From NCBI GenBank assembly GCA_031973235.1, contig DALYDM010000001.1:16129-80128 (forward strand): DNA of 64,000 nt, in the 5' to 3' direction. Each line of letters begins with the position of its first letter. Within the stretch, counting starts at the first letter, position 1. Source of the stretch: Minisyncoccota bacterium. Lineage in GTDB: Bacteria > Patescibacteriota > Minisyncoccia > Phycocordibacterales > UBA9973. Positions 6,189 through 59,558 of this stretch are shown here, in pieces. Position numbers and translations under genes: made by a program. The notes beneath the pieces were generated by a model. The model saw only the letters and a list, made by a program, of their open reading frames with translations, was not told the origin of the DNA and searched no databases.

Positions 6189-6259
6189 TGGGGTATCGTC
6201 TAATGGTAGGACAGAGGCCTTTGAAGCCTTTAATCGTGGTTCGAATCCATGTACCCCAG
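6189..6259 (+). tRNA. tRNA-Gln (anticodon TTG)
   Basis: tggggtatcgtctaatggtagg...gaggc-cTTTGaa-gcctt...ggttcgaatcc...taccccag gives a cloverleaf with a 7-nt anticodon loop reading UUG; the 5' end resembles bacterial tRNA-Gln; CCA is not encoded. Confidence 0.7.
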
Positions 6260-6377
6260 CAAAAATAAGAACTTGATTAAAAACTGTGTGTTTAGAATTT
6301 TAATTATTCCAGTACGACACTTTTAAATAGTAGACATAATGCTTGTTTTGTGATATAGTATTATAACAAATTTATAC

Positions 6378-7679
6378 ATGAAAAAGAAGTTTAAATTCGA
6401 TTCAATATCGTTTAGTAGTTTTCTCGCTGCAGCGGGATTTTTTATACTTTTTGAAATAATATTTTTCTATAAACTGGTTCAAATTTTTAATGTTGAGCAT
6501 TCAGGAATTGTAATTTCATATGTAATTTTATCTACCTTCTTTTTGCTTTCTCGACCAATTATCGCTCTTTTTTACAAAGACATACATAAAGGAATAGACA
6601 TAGAAGGCATAGAACTTCCTAAGGTTTCTTTTATAATTGCTGCCAAGAACGAGCAAGATTCTATCTATTCAACAATTAAAGCATGTATGGACTCAGAGTA
6701 TCCGGGTTCTTTTGAGTGTATTGTTGTAGATGATGGTTCAACTGATAATACTCTCTTGGAAATGAACAGAGCTAAGGCAGATTTTTCGACTCGCTCACAT
6801 CTGGTTAAGGTTATTTCATTTAAAGAAAACAAAGGAAAACGAGAGGGTATGACAGCAGGTTTTCTTGTTGCTAAAGGAGAAATTGTCGTGTTCGTTGATT
6901 CTGATAGTTTTGTTAAACCAAATGCACTCATGCATATAGTCGAACATTTTCTTGAAGATGCAACAATTGGGGCAATTTCTGGGAATACTCTTGTTGAAAA
7001 CCATGACACAAATATTCTCACAAAGATGCAATCAGCTCGATATGGTATTTCTTTTGATATTTTTAAATCATGTGAAAGTGTATTCGGTGCTGTTACTTGT
7101 TGCCCAGGATGTTTTTCTGCGTATCGTTATGATGTAGTTGCAGATATTTTGGAAGATTGGCGGAATCGAACAGTATTTGGAACAAAAAGTACTTTTGGTG
7201 ATGATCGAAGTCTTACAAATTTTGTACTTAAAAAGAAATGGAAGGTTCATTATTGTCGACACGCTCAAGCAACAACAATAGTTCCAGAAACATACAGCAA
7301 GTTTATTAAGCAGCAATTGCGATGGAAAAAATCTTGGATTCGAGAAGGGCTTTTTGGTGCAGCAGCGTTTATGTGGAGAAAACATCCACTTGCATCGATT
7401 GCATTCTATACAAATCTTATAATTCCTATTGTAGGTCCGTTTATTGTTTTGTATGGACTCTATGCAAAAATAATTCACGGTGAATGGATTGCGACACTGC
7501 TTTTTTGTCTTAGTGTTTCAATGATGAGTCTTGCGTATGGTTTGTATCACTACGCACAAACAAAGCACAAAGATTTCTTATACTCAATTCCGTTTACACT
7601 TTTCTATTCAGTAGTTTTAGTATGGCAAATGCCTTGGGCGATTATTAAACTTCGTGACAGTAAGTGGGGAACTCGTTAA
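6378..7679 (+). CDS. processive family-2 glycosyltransferase (PgaC/NodC/HasA-like polysaccharide synthase)
   Basis: 433 aa with N- and C-terminal TM helices, a GT2 core (VVDDGSTDNT, VFVDSDS) and the processive-synthase Q(Q)xRW motif (QQLRWKKSW). Confidence 0.8.
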   Translation: MKKKFKFDSISFSSFLAAAGFFILFEIIFFYKLVQIFNVEHSGIVISYVILSTFFLLSRPIIALFYKDIHKGIDIEGIELPKVSFIIAAKNEQDSIYSTIKACMDSEYPGSFECIVVDDGSTDNTLLEMNRAKADFSTRSHLVKVISFKENKGKREGMTAGFLVAKGEIVVFVDSDSFVKPNALMHIVEHFLEDATIGAISGNTLVENHDTNILTKMQSARYGISFDIFKSCESVFGAVTCCPGCFSAYRYDVVADILEDWRNRTVFGTKSTFGDDRSLTNFVLKKKWKVHYCRHAQATTIVPETYSKFIKQQLRWKKSWIREGLFGAAAFMWRKHPLASIAFYTNLIIPIVGPFIVLYGLYAKIIHGEWIATLLFCLSVSMMSLAYGLYHYAQTKHKDFLYSIPFTLFYSVVLVWQMPWAIIKLRDSKWGTR

Positions 7680-7696
7680 GATTTAGGACTATTTTT

Positions 7697-9223
7697 ATGA
7701 ATACAATTTTAAAATCTGTAATAATTACACTTATTGTCGTGAGTACTGGTTTGGGAATGTACTTTTTTTTCGGACAGAATGTAGCAAAAGAATTGGGTAA
7801 ATATCGTATCGGGTATGTAAATTATCGTATGCCTCAAAGCCTCGAACCTAAAGATGTGAGTATGCTCCCACCTGCCTCGTATGTACCGATACTTATGTAT
7901 CACGGTGTAATCAAAGTAAGTGATAATGATAATACTTCATATGGAAATTTTGTTGATGTGATGGAGTATTTAAAACGAGAGGGGTATCAAACTATATCAC
8001 TTGATGAGTACAATAAGTTTCGAATGGGAAATTTTGTGCTTCCACCAAAACCAATAATAATTACTTTTGATGATGGAAGAAAAGATAGTTATTATACAAC
8101 CGATGATGTATTTAATAAACTCGGATTTAAAGCAACAATTTTTGTTGCCACTGGACCAATGGTGGATGGCAATTCATTTTATTTAGACAAGAGCGAATTG
8201 AAGAAAATGTCCGAATCTGGTCGATGGGAAATAGAAGCGCATGGTCGGTATTCGCATAATAAAATAAAAATAAATAACTCGTCTACTTCTTCTGATTTAA
8301 ATGAAGGTAGATTTCTTACATCAAAGATGTATTTAGAAAATGAACAAAGATTAGAAACTGATGAAGAATTTATAAATAGAGTAAGAAATGACTATGTTGT
8401 TGGTAATCAAGATATAAAAAATATTATAGGTAAAGAGCCACGCTTTTTTGCAATTCCGCTTAATGACTACGGTGATTCGGATTTTGGTAATTTTCCTCAG
8501 GCGGTTGAAATAAATAACAATATTGCAAAAGAGTTATATAGCCTAGCGTTTATTCAAGGAAATGAATTTGATGATGTGACTGTTGTATTAGAATCACCAT
8601 ATAATGGTGTTGATACTGATCCGATGCGTATGCGAAGACTTGAAATGAAAAATATGTCATCAACGCAACTTGATAGCATTCTTACATCACGAATACCGTC
8701 TGAACCCGAGTTTGTACTTTCAGATATCACACTTAAACAAATTCCCAAAAAGCAAAGAATTTCGGGAGAGCTTACTACGCACGCTGAAGGATTTGAAATA
8801 AAGGCATCGGAACCAAATGGGAATGCATCATTTGAAGTAGGTGAACATTTTTGGAAGAATTATACTGTCTCAAGCACCTTTGATATTATCGAAGGTGACT
8901 CAGTCTATCTTTTTGCACGACATGAAAGTGAAAATTCATACTATGCGTGTGGTGTGTCTGGAAATACACTTTTTATAAGAAAGGTTATAAATGGTAATAC
9001 TTCATACCTTGCAACTGAGCATCTTGATTTTTCGATATATGAACAAAAGAATTTATTGTTAGATTTTGATTTGGTAGGTACAGATATTTCATGTATGCTG
9101 AATAATTCAATAACGGCGATTTCAAAAGATTCTGCAATCTCAATGGGTGATTCAGGTATGATTATATGGAGTGAGTCCAGTATTGCGCATAGTATTATTC
9201 ATGATTTTAGCGTAGTGAAATAG
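7697..9223 (+). CDS. membrane-anchored polysaccharide deacetylase (CE4/NodB) with an extra C-terminal beta-rich domain
   Basis: TM anchor, then a CE4 signature (VPILMYHGV...IITFDDGRKD...EIEAHG). The C-terminal ~150 aa are paralogous to the C-terminus of the next gene. Start is taken at the internal ATG 7697 (MNTILKSV), 18 nt after the upstream stop. Confidence 0.75.
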   Translation: MNTILKSVIITLIVVSTGLGMYFFFGQNVAKELGKYRIGYVNYRMPQSLEPKDVSMLPPASYVPILMYHGVIKVSDNDNTSYGNFVDVMEYLKREGYQTISLDEYNKFRMGNFVLPPKPIIITFDDGRKDSYYTTDDVFNKLGFKATIFVATGPMVDGNSFYLDKSELKKMSESGRWEIEAHGRYSHNKIKINNSSTSSDLNEGRFLTSKMYLENEQRLETDEEFINRVRNDYVVGNQDIKNIIGKEPRFFAIPLNDYGDSDFGNFPQAVEINNNIAKELYSLAFIQGNEFDDVTVVLESPYNGVDTDPMRMRRLEMKNMSSTQLDSILTSRIPSEPEFVLSDITLKQIPKKQRISGELTTHAEGFEIKASEPNGNASFEVGEHFWKNYTVSSTFDIIEGDSVYLFARHESENSYYACGVSGNTLFIRKVINGNTSYLATEHLDFSIYEQKNLLLDFDLVGTDISCMLNNSITAISKDSAISMGDSGMIIWSESSIAHSIIHDFSVVK

Positions 9224-9249
9224 TGGGAAATATATAGTACACTATAGGC

Positions 9250-10239
9250 ATGACAATTATAAAATCAATTGGAATTCTCGTAGCAGTTATAGTTGTGTTT
9301 CTTGTGGGCCAAAAAGCATTCGACGCATATTTTTCTTCAAGAAATCACAATAATGTTGTAGGAGTAATATCAGACAAAACAGGATCTCTTTCAGGTGATG
9401 ATGAGGGTGAGGGTGTATTCTTGAAAGGAAATTTCGGTGCTGAAATGGAAGATCTTTTGGCGGCTGTTTCTCGTTCAAGAAAAAATCAAACAAAAACTGG
9501 GACTAGTACAAAGGATTCATTTTCTACATCTCTAATCATAGATGAGTCAGGTTCAATTTCAGGAAGTACAAGTTCTCGATGGTGGGTTAATTCTGGTGGA
9601 CGATTTATAATTAATGGCTCAACAGCCAAGACAATTTTTGGTGATTTGCCCTCATCTGATAATTGGTACAAAGAGTATCTTTCTTCAAATCCACTAGATA
9701 CAGACAACGGTCTTCATCCTCAAAATATTTTTAGACTTGTTGAGCGTGAGTTTTGGAAAAATTTCTCACAGGAAGTGTATTTTAAAATAGTAAAATATAA
9801 TGTAAGTCAAAGTCCAAACAGGAATGCATCAAATGGAGTTTTGCTGTTTAATCGATATCAATCTGGTGATAGTCTTTACTATTCTGGAATTAGAGTTGAC
9901 GGAAACATTGTTGTTAAAAAGAAATTAAATGGAACATATTATACTCTTGGAACAATAAAACAATTTCCTGGAACATATTCAATTTCATCAAATCCAAATT
10001 TGCTCCCATTGAATCAATGGATAGGACTTAAAACTACAGTGAGAGATTTATCTGATGGCAGGATTGAAATAATTGTATATACCGATGTTACGAATTCAAA
10101 GCAGTGGGCAGAGTCACTTAAGGTATATGATGTTTCTGGTACAAACGGTTCAAATACCATTAGTACTCAGGGATATGCGGGAATACGAACAGATTTTATG
10201 GATGTTGAGTTTGACGATTACTCAATTTCATCACTTTAA
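9250..10239 (+). CDS. membrane-anchored secreted protein sharing a C-terminal domain with the upstream deacetylase
   Basis: N-terminal TM anchor; EFWKNFS / LYYSGIRVDGNIVVKKKLNGTYYTLG / AGIRTDFMDVEF align with HFWKNYT / SYYACGVSGNTLFIRKVINGNTSYLA / MIIWSESSIAHSIIHDF of the 7697-9223 ORF. Confidence 0.5.
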   Translation: MTIIKSIGILVAVIVVFLVGQKAFDAYFSSRNHNNVVGVISDKTGSLSGDDEGEGVFLKGNFGAEMEDLLAAVSRSRKNQTKTGTSTKDSFSTSLIIDESGSISGSTSSRWWVNSGGRFIINGSTAKTIFGDLPSSDNWYKEYLSSNPLDTDNGLHPQNIFRLVEREFWKNFSQEVYFKIVKYNVSQSPNRNASNGVLLFNRYQSGDSLYYSGIRVDGNIVVKKKLNGTYYTLGTIKQFPGTYSISSNPNLLPLNQWIGLKTTVRDLSDGRIEIIVYTDVTNSKQWAESLKVYDVSGTNGSNTISTQGYAGIRTDFMDVEFDDYSISSL

Positions 10240-10243
10240 TAAA

Positions 10244-10279
10244 AAACTCCTTAAGTGAAATTTCACTGAAGGAGTTTTG
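10244..10279. terminator. bidirectional rho-independent terminator
   Basis: aactccttaagtgaaa / tttcactgaaggagtt stem flanked by A-run and T-run, between convergent genes. Confidence 0.7.
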
Positions 10280-10284
10280 AGTGT

Positions 10285-10590
10285 TTAGATAAAGAACGTT
10301 AGTATCCAGCCGGTCGCGAGTATGGCAAGCGGTTCCAGTACAAACTTTACCAAGGCATTCTCAATGTTTTCAAGAAAACTTGCTGAATGATCAATCACCA
10401 CACTACCTCCACTTCTAGGCATGATTATTGCTATAATAAGCATCACACCTGATCCTGTTATTATTGTTAATTCAGGAAAGTGAAAAGTTGGGACAATGTA
10501 CCAATTCCAAAGTAAAGAGAAGATTTTTCCGTACCAGACTGTAGTTATCATTACATTGAGTAATGTTGCGATAATTGCTTTTGTTGACAT
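10285..10590 (-). CDS. small integral membrane protein (hypothetical)
   Basis: 101 aa with three predicted hydrophobic helices. Confidence 0.4.
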   Translation of the reverse strand: MSTKAIIATLLNVMITTVWYGKIFSLLWNWYIVPTFHFPELTIITGSGVMLIIAIIMPRSGGSVVIDHSASFLENIENALVKFVLEPLAILATGWILTFFI

Positions 10591-10765
10591 CGTTTAGGTT
10601 TTTAAATTTTTAAATATATTATCATAAAATAGAATTTTTGTCAAGTATGTTTATATCATAAAAAATACAGCGTTTTAGTTTCTCGCAAGTATGCATTATG
10701 ATCATCACGCGTGATAATCTACTTTTTCGCCAAAAGTCCCTATGTGTGGTACAGTGTGTTTCTAA

Positions 10766-12277
10766 ATGCAAAAGACAATCTCTGTCAAAAATATTGAATA
10801 CTCGGTCAATGAAAAGCCCATTTTGCAGGGCATTTCTTTTCGTTGTGCAGATGATGAGCGAATCTGTATATTCGGCGAAAACGGCGCAGGGAAGTCGACA
10901 CTCCTTAAGATTATTTGCGGTGAAGTAGAGCAAGATTCTGGAAGAATAGAAAAGCAAGGACATATCAGATTTGTATATGTACCACAAGAATTCGACCACT
11001 CATACTTCGAACTTTTGATAGAAGAATATATCAAAGAGAAAGCAGGTGAGACACTTTCAAAAAAAGTCCACAATATTGCAAAGGTTCTCGGATTTCATAT
11101 TGAAAAGCACAAAGATACAAAGTGTGGAAGACTCTCCGGAGGACAGCAAAAGATTCTTGCGCTCTCATGTGCGTTTGCGCTTGCACCGGACTTCTTGCTT
11201 CTCGACGAACCAGAAAACCATCTCGACATTGTAAGTCGTGTGGAACTCGTGCGACTTCTCGAAGAATTTCGTGGAGCGATTATTTTTATTTCTCACGATA
11301 GACTTCTCATTGATGGTGTTGCGACAAAAATTGGTGAAATAGTCCAAGGGAAAATTTATATTTCAGAAGGAGACTACGATGATTATATTCAGACTAAGGT
11401 TGAGCGAATTGCAGGACTACAACGTGAACATGATGTTCGTTCGAAGAGAATCAAGCAACTTTCTTCGGCGATTGTGATTCTCCAACAAAAAGCATTTCGA
11501 GGAAAAGAAGTCTCGGCATATAAGCGTGCAAAAGAAGAACTCGCACAACTCAAAAAAGAAGCAAAAGAAAACGGTAGACCAGACGAAGCACAAAACAAAA
11601 TTAAAATTGCGAGTACTGAGCAAGGTCTTCATGGAGGAAAATTGGTATTGAAAGTAGTAAAGGGAATGTTTGAATTTCCAGAACCAAAGAAAAGAATTTT
11701 TGATAATGTTGATTTGGAAATTCGCACAGGAGACAAAGTAGTACTACTTGGAAGAAATGGCTCAGGTAAATCTACATTTTTGAAGTGTCTCACAAGTGAA
11801 CTCACTCTCACGAAGGGCGAAGCGACTTTTGGAAACGGAATTACATACGCGTACTTTGATCAGCATGCACAATTTGACCCAGAATTAAGTGCGGTAGATA
11901 TTGTGTGTGAAAAACTCAACATGATAGACCAAGAAGCGCGTTCTGTTCTCGGTATGATGAAATTTGACACACCTCGGATGATTGCTCCTATTCGGAATCT
12001 CTCTGGTGGAGAGCGAATGAGACTTCGATTCGCGATTGTATTTGGTCAGCGACCAGACCTCATCATTCTCGATGAGCCTACAAACCATATCGATGAAGTA
12101 ACTTGGGAAATTCTCCTTGAAGCATGTAAGACGTCAAAAAGTACGATACTCCTCGTGAGTCACGACTATGAATTTATCGAAGCATTTGCTCCGAGTGTCT
12201 TTTGGGTGATTCACAATCAGGCTGTGGTGGCACGACACAAAGAACTCAACGAACTACTTGAAGAACTCAAATCATAG
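10766..12277 (+). CDS. ABC-F family ATPase (tandem ABC domains, no TMD)
   Basis: Two Walker A (GENGAGKST; GRNGSGKST), two ABC signatures (LSGGQQK; LSGGERMR) and two Walker B (LLLDEPENHLD; ILDEPTNHID) motifs, separated by a charged linker. Confidence 0.85.
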   Translation: MQKTISVKNIEYSVNEKPILQGISFRCADDERICIFGENGAGKSTLLKIICGEVEQDSGRIEKQGHIRFVYVPQEFDHSYFELLIEEYIKEKAGETLSKKVHNIAKVLGFHIEKHKDTKCGRLSGGQQKILALSCAFALAPDFLLLDEPENHLDIVSRVELVRLLEEFRGAIIFISHDRLLIDGVATKIGEIVQGKIYISEGDYDDYIQTKVERIAGLQREHDVRSKRIKQLSSAIVILQQKAFRGKEVSAYKRAKEELAQLKKEAKENGRPDEAQNKIKIASTEQGLHGGKLVLKVVKGMFEFPEPKKRIFDNVDLEIRTGDKVVLLGRNGSGKSTFLKCLTSELTLTKGEATFGNGITYAYFDQHAQFDPELSAVDIVCEKLNMIDQEARSVLGMMKFDTPRMIAPIRNLSGGERMRLRFAIVFGQRPDLIILDEPTNHIDEVTWEILLEACKTSKSTILLVSHDYEFIEAFAPSVFWVIHNQAVVARHKELNELLEELKS

Positions 12278-29730: not shown

Positions 29731-29805
29731 GGCCCTATCGTCTAACGGTTAGGACATCGCCTTCTCAAGGCGGTAATCAGGGTTCGATTCCCTGTAGGGT
29801 CACCA
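29731..29805 (+). tRNA. tRNA-Glu (anticodon CTC), CCA encoded
   Basis: ggccctatcgtctaacggttaggacatcgcc-tTCTCaa-ggcggtaatcagggttcgattccctgtagggtcacca parallels bacterial tRNA-Glu (gtcccct tcgtctagagg...ccgcc cTTTCac ggcgg...). Confidence 0.8.
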
Positions 29806-59448: not shown

Positions 59449-59521
59449 GCGCGCATAGCTCAGCTGGTAGAGCATTCGACTGATACTCGAAAGGTCCTAG
59501 GTTCGACCCCTAGTGCGCGCA
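59449..59521 (+). tRNA. tRNA-Ile (anticodon GAT)
   Basis: gcgcgca-ta-gctcagctggtagagc-a-ttcga-cTGATAc-tcgaa-aggtc-ctaggttcgacccctag-tgcgcgc-a, with a perfectly paired acceptor stem; terminator 59530-59557. Confidence 0.8.
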
Positions 59522-59558
59522 CAAATAAGAAAACCACCTTACGGGGTGGTTTTTTGGA

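Follow-up and report, generated by a model that had tools for sequence, protein, structure and literature searches.

The window analysed here is a stretch of 64,000 nucleotides (nt) from a Minisyncoccota bacterium (contig DALYDM010000001.1), and the element of interest is a set of three genes that form a synthase-dependent exopolysaccharide operon, as the original prediction, made from the DNA letters alone, had it. The first gene (6378 to 7679, + strand) encodes a processive GT2 synthase of 433 amino acids (aa), the second (7664 to 9223, + strand) a membrane-anchored two-domain deacetylase of 519 aa in its longest form, and the third (9250 to 10239, + strand) a protein of 329 aa that we call P3. 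The open reading frame (ORF) list has all three where they were originally placed, and each of the proteins has a hydrophobic anchor at its N-terminus. The synthase and deacetylase ORFs overlap by 16 nt, and the gap between the deacetylase and P3 is 26 nt. A promoter-like site, TAGACA-17-TATAGT with an extended TG, was found by consensus scan at 6331 to 6359 (+ strand), 19 nt 5' of the synthase start codon and between a tRNA-Gln (anticodon TTG, 6189-6260, + strand) and the ATG at 6378. Across this region such matches are no more frequent than in shuffled sequences, so it is position that makes this site a candidate. Directly 3' of the P3 stop codon is a terminator-like hairpin followed by UUUU (10243 to 10278, + strand), with an RNA folding energy of -18.1 kcal/mol and z = -4.9, and 0 of 200 shuffled sequences fold equally well. 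Because the genes overlap or lie close together and are framed by the promoter-like site and the hairpin, they look like one transcription unit.

For the deacetylase gene there are two candidate starts, GTG 7664, which gives the 16-nt overlap with the synthase, and ATG 7697, which gives a protein of 508 aa. Deacetylase orthologues, retrieved with the whole protein as query, are 503-517 aa long and are aligned across 95-100% of their length. Since 508 aa fits the orthologue lengths, ATG 7697 is the more likely start. The start in the public annotation (494 aa, P0121) falls inside the membrane anchor, and that version looks too short.

The synthase is recognized by Pfam as GT2 and Chitin_synth_2. 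Its motifs are DDGS at residue 118, DSDS at 174, GDDR at 274, QQLRW at 312 (the motif named in the original prediction), and WGTR at 430-433, which is the very C-terminus. The N-terminal part has two hydrophobic segments and the C-terminal part at least two. DDGS, DSDS, GDDR, and QQLRW align with CvHAS, Bacillus anthracis HasA, and NodC, and WGTR corresponds to W454-R457 of CvHAS and to the C-terminal end of HasA. GDDR, QxxRW, and the WGTR gating loop are conserved functional motifs of hyaluronan synthases (PMC11750622). The original prediction was prepared to give way if the GT2 lacked the processive signature, and the signature is present, with D, DxD, GDDR, and QxxRW all aligned.

Where we depart from the original prediction is in its description of this enzyme as PgaC-like. 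The NCBIfam model for NodC (TIGR04242) matches the synthase over the full length of the model (positions 9-394 of 395) with 164.4 bits, far below its cut-off of 550, and the model for PgaC/IcaA (TIGR03937) matches with 141.1 bits, likewise far below its cut-off of 422.3, covering the GT domain only (model positions 36-325 of 407). The best PDB sequence matches are hyaluronan synthases, with CvHAS scoring E = 6.6 × 10−33 over aa 147-433, followed by chitin synthases at about 10−11, and then cellulose synthase at about 10−7. In a tblastn search against plasmids, an uncharacterised Paenibacillus GT2 is the top match with 41.5% identity, and below it scores fall from 152 bits for NodC through 141 for B. 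anthracis HasA to about 110 for PgaC. Direct alignment finds GDDR, QQLRWKKSWIRE, and the C-terminal WGTR common to HasA, NodC, and the Paenibacillus GT2, whereas E. coli PgaC at the aligned positions has TEDI and QRLRWAQGGAEV (RWAQGG) and lacks WGTR. Because of these scores and the diagnostic motifs, the synthase is placed, as judged from its sequence, in the hyaluronan-synthase/NodC/chitin-synthase branch of GT2 and outside the PgaC branch, and by the same measures it is the equivalog of no named enzyme. A PgaD/IcaD-like small gene is absent from the three-gene operon, the gaps of which leave no room for another ORF.

The deacetylase has its hydrophobic anchor at aa 9-37, followed by a CE4 de-N-acetylase catalytic domain of the PgaB/IcaB type (aa 60-339; 7841 to 8680, + strand) and a concanavalin-A-like, CBM66-like C-terminal module (aa 340-519; 8681 to 9220, + strand). 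The Pfam family PF01522 (Polysacc_deac_1) matches with 54.3 bits, above its cut-off of 23.1, and the best PDB match of the catalytic domain is BpsB/PgaB 5bu6 at E = 1.7 × 10−11, with PgaB, BpsB, and IcaB being the closest relatives. Deacetylase residues H80, D136, D137, H193, and H198 align with E. coli PgaB H55, D114, D115, H184, and H189, which we take to be the catalytic base, the catalytic acid, and the three metal ligands of that enzyme, and they are invariant or nearly so among 66 orthologues. The catalytic residues are intact, and catalytic competence is shown to the extent that residue conservation can show it. The PgaB equivalog model (TIGR03938) scores 72.2 bits against a cut-off of 321.9 and matches the N-terminal domain only. 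The C-terminal GH153 hydrolase domain of PgaB is missing, and the last 180 aa are instead predicted to fold as a concanavalin-A-like sandwich. A membrane-anchored CE4 deacetylase was thus rightly called from the DNA, and its resemblance to PgaB holds for the CE4 domain with the five residues and stops short of the C-terminal hydrolase domain.

P3 begins with a signal-anchor helix (aa 1-29; 9250 to 9336, + strand), in which the hydrophobic 19-mer has a Kyte-Doolittle (KD) value of 2.73 and the structure model has a helix at residues 3-29. A flexible, poorly conserved linker follows (aa 30-84; 9337 to 9501, + strand), with a predicted local distance difference test (pLDDT) score of 42-55 over residues 31-80 and alignment columns lacking consensus. 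The remainder is a 245-aa domain consisting of a concanavalin-A-like fold plus an N-terminal elaboration (residues 85-329; 9502 to 10236, + strand), so the conserved globular part is well beyond the roughly 150 aa first proposed for it. Its conserved blocks are WWVNSGG, DTDNGxHPQNIFRL, SPNRNASNG, LYYTGxRVDG, KKK, and GYAGIRTDFMDVEFDDY. Neither as a single sequence nor as a profile does P3 match anything in Pfam, NCBIfam, or the PDB sequences; in these collections the profile reaches no glycoside hydrolase (GH) or polysaccharide lyase (PL) family, and it does not match the sequence of CBM66, a family of carbohydrate-binding modules (CBM). More than 1167 homologues are found at about 50% identity over residues 85-329, and in a large library the family comprises 744 cluster representatives at 50% identity. 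A 95-member alignment has 30 invariant and 41 nearly invariant columns. P3 is also the best conserved protein of the cassette, with a median identity of 50.5% versus 38.2% for the GT2 and 36.2% for the CE4 domain. P3 is an unannotated sequence family with a familiar fold.

The fold is seen in the predicted structures of the P3 domain and of the deacetylase C-terminal module, both with pLDDT above 94 over the domains. Both are concanavalin-A-like beta-sandwiches with nearly identical lists of best PDB neighbours, the best structural match being CBM66, and the best neighbours of P3 are non-catalytic lectin or CBM domains. The original guess of a ConA-like lectin or a CBM was correct. That prediction had also described the anchored third protein as related to the deacetylase C-terminus through a shared domain of no assignable family. 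The relationship is real and weak, and the domain can be assigned, since its fold is the concanavalin-A-like one closest to CBM66. By BLASTP, the deacetylase C-terminus aligns with P3 at 31% identity over 90 aa (E = 3 × 10−5), spanning the FWKN, YY.G, and NG blocks, and P3 is the sole non-self match of the deacetylase module in a six-frame translation of the whole window (E = 2.7 × 10−4). A hidden Markov model (HMM) of the deacetylase module, searched against 120 sequences, matches many P3-family members in register with E of 10−4 to 10−6, the reverse search is marginal, and profile-profile comparison of the module with the P3 family is weak. Close paralogy of the two was dropped because that last comparison gives a probability of only 2-10%. 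We conclude that the two domain types, which are also found side by side in single proteins, belong to different families within one fold group and are at most remotely homologous. The deacetylase-module profile matches the CBM66 of Bacillus subtilis levanase at E = 0.0015 over 65 residues. PF06439 (DUF1080, 3-keto-disaccharide hydrolase) gives weak matches in 7 of 38 deacetylase modules (best E = 0.0012) and in 1 of 95 P3 proteins (E = 0.029), none of which reaches the gathering score, and the window's own deacetylase module and P3 give no match to it.

The proteins in which P3 domains are found elsewhere bear on what the domain does. They occur in tandem, both inside proteins and as neighbouring genes. 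In three proteins (P0346, P0372, and P0374) a single chain joins CE4, the CBM66-like module, and the P3 domain, and for this reason we consider genes 2 and 3 of the operon to be functionally coupled. Two large secreted proteins of 1163 and 1372 aa (P0258 and P0260) contain a heparinase II/III-like lyase, a CE4, and a P3 domain; three others (P0257, P0262, and P0293) have a P3 domain with GH6 and a peptidoglycan-binding domain; and one (P0242) has it joined to GH5. Further fusion partners are PG_binding_1, PKD, fn3, FG-GAP, BACON, and discoidin modules. At one locus (L005) a GH6 gene at 9734-11632 lies two genes downstream of P3. The structural neighbours and the fusions, which join the domain to adhesin repeats and to several catalytic domains unrelated to one another, favour reading P3 as a non-catalytic carbohydrate-binding module. 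A peptidoglycan-binding domain stands in place of the membrane anchor in some P3 proteins, implying that the role there would again be tethering to the envelope. As hydrolases, a lyase, and wall-binding proteins also carry the domain, it probably recognizes a glycan that matters to these organisms in general.

To see how the cassette is distributed, one genome per species was scanned, giving 263 loci, 80 of which were examined. They belong mostly to Patescibacteria, with some labelled as DPANN archaea and one from the cultured Methylocaldum sp. GT1BB. GT2, CE4, and P3 genes follow one another in the window's order in 38 of the 80 loci and both partner genes are present in another arrangement in 8 more, so a synthase and a deacetylase are found no more than 7 kb from P3 in 46/80. 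Just one of the two is near P3 in 12 loci and neither in 22, most of the latter being truncated: in 14 the locus extends less than 4.5 kb upstream, and in the other 8 the flanks are longer. When ORFs of at least 120 aa were clustered, the only recurrent families in the 80 loci were P3 (75), GT2 (59), CE4 (55), and a nucleotide-sugar dehydrogenase (18), and the genes around the cassette vary from locus to locus. Small histidine kinases (HisKA plus HATPase_c) are near the cassette in 9 of the 80, often as two copies (for example, L058 7065-8084, − strand), and may be a regulatory link to it.

The dehydrogenase adjoins the synthase in several clades, including DPANN loci, and the 18 loci amount to about a quarter of the set (examples are at 2681-3895 in L007 and L008 and at 2681-3931 in L052). 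It is closer to UDP-ManNAc/UDP-GlcNAc 6-dehydrogenases than to UDP-glucose dehydrogenases, so the polymer of those lineages may be acidic and resemble a glycosaminoglycan. No dehydrogenase is found within the 64-kb window, and none adjoins the synthase in the 11 loci of the window's synthase clade. A true hyaluronan system, in which the synthase would use UDP-GlcA and UDP-GlcNAc in alternation and a UDP-glucose dehydrogenase would be encoded in the operon or elsewhere in the genome, was considered for the window and not adopted, there being no dehydrogenase nearby and that of the related loci not being of the UDP-glucose type.

An idea that DPANN loci are deacetylase-free proved wrong, as they carry a different, DUF2334/CE4-like enzyme. 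P3, synthase, and dehydrogenase are present in genomes labelled Woesearchaeota, Nanoarchaeota, and Pacearchaeota (L043, L070, L072, L074, and L077). For the DPANN-labelled occurrences there are two explanations, namely that ultra-small symbionts have exchanged the genes across domains or that the bins carry wrong labels, and several records labelled Gammaproteobacteria, Bdellovibrionales, or "delta proteobacterium" may be mis-binned Patescibacteria. The cassette of the cultured gammaproteobacterium Methylocaldum sp. GT1BB (L085, NZ_CP194902.1 2226134-2240841, on a record that is labelled "plasmid" yet is 5.3 Mb) has the order synthase (cut at the locus edge), a 664-aa CE4 protein, a 1352-aa TPR-plus-CE4 protein, and a 311-aa P3 homologue. 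The extra giant TPR-CE4 protein is what one would expect for export in a diderm. Among open-access papers and bioRxiv there was no specific description of the cassette in Patescibacteria, which is weak evidence of absence; the paper that came nearest deals with other bacteria and their degradation of chitin.

Putting these parts together, we lean, with some reserve, toward an operon that makes a GlcNAc-containing polymer, partly de-N-acetylated, which is bound and retained at the cell surface by P3. The synthase, membrane-embedded and processive as its family is, would polymerise a UDP-GlcNAc-derived sugar and extrude the chain through its own transmembrane region. The product would most likely be a beta-1,4-linked, chitin-like chain, to which related lineages may add N-acetyl-hexosaminuronic acid. 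A chitin-like product is supported by the Paenibacillus relative of the synthase, because it shares its operon with a similar CE4 and with a GH18 protein. GH18 is a chitinase family. The product originally foreseen was poly-GlcNAc or chitosan-like, and of these the synthase motifs favour the beta-1,4 "chitosan-like" one over poly-N-acetylglucosamine (PNAG). Outside the membrane, the signal-anchored CE4 would remove part of the N-acetyl groups while its CBM66-like module grips the chain. P3, with its signal anchor, a tether of about 55 residues, and the conserved concanavalin-A-like domain, would be a non-catalytic subunit that captures the polymer and keeps it on the cell, so that this ultra-small monoderm would be coated with an attached capsule or adhesive layer. 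That such a polymer serves cell-cell attachment, as the original prediction proposed, is speculation.

Several observations pull against this picture. P3 is conserved above the synthase and has many charged invariant positions, which one would sooner expect of an enzyme than of a lectin, and CBM66 has nothing that corresponds to its 75-residue N-terminal elaboration. Sequence alone does not reveal whether the linkage is beta-1,4 or another, and the closest relatives of the deacetylase act on beta-1,6 PNAG. Finally, the dehydrogenases adjacent to related cassettes may mean that the ancestral polymer was acidic rather than chitosan-like.

Its conservation and its many invariant charged residues are reasons to weigh the possibility that P3 is a jelly-roll enzyme that cleaves or transfers glycan (a glycoside hydrolase, lyase, or transglycosylase) and trims, releases, or cross-links the polymer. 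It would then play the part that BcsZ, the C-terminal domain of PgaB, PelA, AlgL, or fungal Crh plays in other synthase-dependent systems. Beyond its being conserved above the synthase, P3 has invariant polar residues including H156, Q158, N159, R162, R191, Y210, Y211, R215, and D217, with K223-225, Y230, and R313 in addition, and these are reminiscent of the Arg/Gln/His/Tyr sets of jelly-roll lyases. E99, D152, and D294 are invariant as well. For reference, GH16 enzymes have the motif ExDxxE and PL7 lyases the motifs RxELR, QIH, and YFKAGxYxQ. The third gene of the Paenibacillus operon encodes a GH18 protein, and the dehydrogenase-linked loci suggest a uronic-acid polymer, the type of substrate that lyases need. 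However, the best structural matches of P3 are non-catalytic and no GH or PL profile matches it; its tandem repeats, and its fusions to several unrelated catalytic domains and to adhesin modules, are what binding modules usually show; and some of the fusions already hold a heparinase-like lyase, GH5, or GH6 as the obvious catalytic part. We regard an enzymatic P3 as a serious alternative, and as the less probable answer.

A broader suggestion, which we offer only tentatively and would not expect to hold in full, is that P3 marks an unrecognised synthase-dependent system of Patescibacteria, DPANN archaea, and a few free-living bacteria, with a zwitterionic, glycosaminoglycan-like polymer as its product and with P3 as a new CBM family specific to that polymer or a new jelly-roll lyase/hydrolase family. 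The polymer would be built from GlcNAc and N-acetyl-hexosaminuronic acid, with partial de-N-acetylation giving the zwitterionic character, and P3 would be the most constrained component because it governs the display of the polymer for host-cell attachment.

It is unlikely that the locus is a PNAG (beta-1,6-GlcNAc) system, with a synthase like PgaC/IcaA and a deacetylase like PgaB/IcaB, even though the PgaC_IcaA model does match the synthase at 141 bits and the best relatives of the deacetylase are PgaB, BpsB, and IcaB, with the same five catalytic residues. The synthase score is far under the PgaC cut-off and comes from the GT domain only, and NodC at 152 bits and HasA at 141 are placed over PgaC at about 110 by tblastn. 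In its motifs the synthase is HasA/NodC-like, with GDDR, QQLRWKKS, and the C-terminal WGTR, and lacks the TED and RWAQGG of PgaC; the operon is without a PgaD- or IcaD-like small gene, and the deacetylase without a GH153 domain. We consider it very improbable that P3 leaves the cell's own polymer unbound and serves instead in adhesion or targeting to a foreign glycan, for example that of a host cell wall, lying beside the synthase for regulatory reasons, a case that has on its side the fusions to GH5/GH6 cellulase-type domains, peptidoglycan-binding domains, and many adhesin-type repeats, and the 8 full-flank loci with P3 and no nearby synthase, and that has against it the strong synteny of P3 and synthase across Patescibacteria, DPANN archaea, and a gammaproteobacterium, and the direct fusion of P3 to the cassette's own deacetylase.

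As for the surroundings of the operon in the window, the flanking genes are housekeeping genes. On the 5' side come, in order, a DNA polymerase III gamma/tau-like gene, its terminator, the tRNA-Gln, and the promoter-like site; other tRNAs in the window are those for Glu (29731-29805) and Ile (59449-59522). On the 3' side, a 101-aa hydrophobic protein with no Pfam match is encoded at 10285-10590 (− strand), converging on the operon terminator, and it is not kept beside the cassette in other loci. The G+C fraction of the operon region is 0.335-0.348, slightly under the window average.

Patescibacteria and DPANN archaea make up a large share of microbial diversity and live attached to other cells, and their surface polymers are little known. 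A compact, recurrent cassette is a concrete candidate for the source of a conserved surface or attachment polymer, and its homologues in cultured bacteria (Methylocaldum sp. GT1BB with P3, and Paenibacillus cellulositrophicus with GH18) offer experimental access that does not depend on cultivating symbionts. Should the operon prove to make nothing more than ordinary chitosan or PNAG, with P3 simply binding it, the gain is a new CBM-like family and an operon variant, which would be useful and unsurprising.

Among known systems, PgaABCD and IcaADBC follow the same general scheme as the cassette, in which a CE4 de-N-acetylase outside the cytoplasm comes after a processive GT2, and the catalytic domain of that deacetylase is of the PgaB/IcaB type with five identical residues. 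The likeness ends there. The synthase does not have the PgaC-type motifs, PgaD or IcaD is missing, a CBM66-like module takes the place of the PgaB GH153 domain, the PgaA porin is absent, as expected for a monoderm, and P3 has no Pga/Ica counterpart. The cassette is not a member of the Pga/Ica systems, whose defining features it does not have. A synthase of the HAS/NodC type, a PgaB-type deacetylase with a CBM66-like module, and P3 are parts not known together.

Compared with class I hyaluronan synthases and NodC, the alignment of the synthase extends through the C-terminal membrane region, and QQxRW(K/R)S, GDDR, and WGTR are shared, at only about 28% identity. Like B. anthracis HasA, the synthase terminates exactly at WGTR, and it lacks the transmembrane helices that come after the gating loop in CvHAS. 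Unlike hyaluronan and Nod operons, the cassette has no hasB/hasC or nodA/nodB, and the synthase is paired instead with the PgaB-type deacetylase and P3. With respect to CBM66, represented by the C-terminal module of B. subtilis levanase SacC and the xanthan-binding CsCBM66, 12-19% of residues are identical. P3 exceeds CBM66 in length by about 80 residues, is much more strongly conserved, and is a stand-alone membrane-anchored protein of a biosynthetic operon, whereas CBM66 rides on a degradative enzyme. Modules of the CBM66 type can differ widely in specificity (PMC11002231).

The nearest operon to compare is the uncharacterised one on a plasmid of Paenibacillus cellulositrophicus (L089, NZ_CP045296.1 264669-269475), which runs CE4, a dehydrogenase-like stretch (7082-8122 of the locus, in an unannotated gap), PilZ-GT2, CE4, and GH18. 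The second CE4 is substituted at metal and catalytic positions, having FEDG and missing histidines, unlike the deacetylase of the window, and the third gene is GH18 and not P3. Its synthase differs from that of the window in having an N-terminal PilZ domain, which suggests control by c-di-GMP. What the two operons have in common is the GT2 itself, the closest annotated relative in the plasmid collection at 41.5% identity and likewise ending in WGTR, after which come a C-terminally extended CE4 and, in third place, a carbohydrate-active protein anchored in the membrane.

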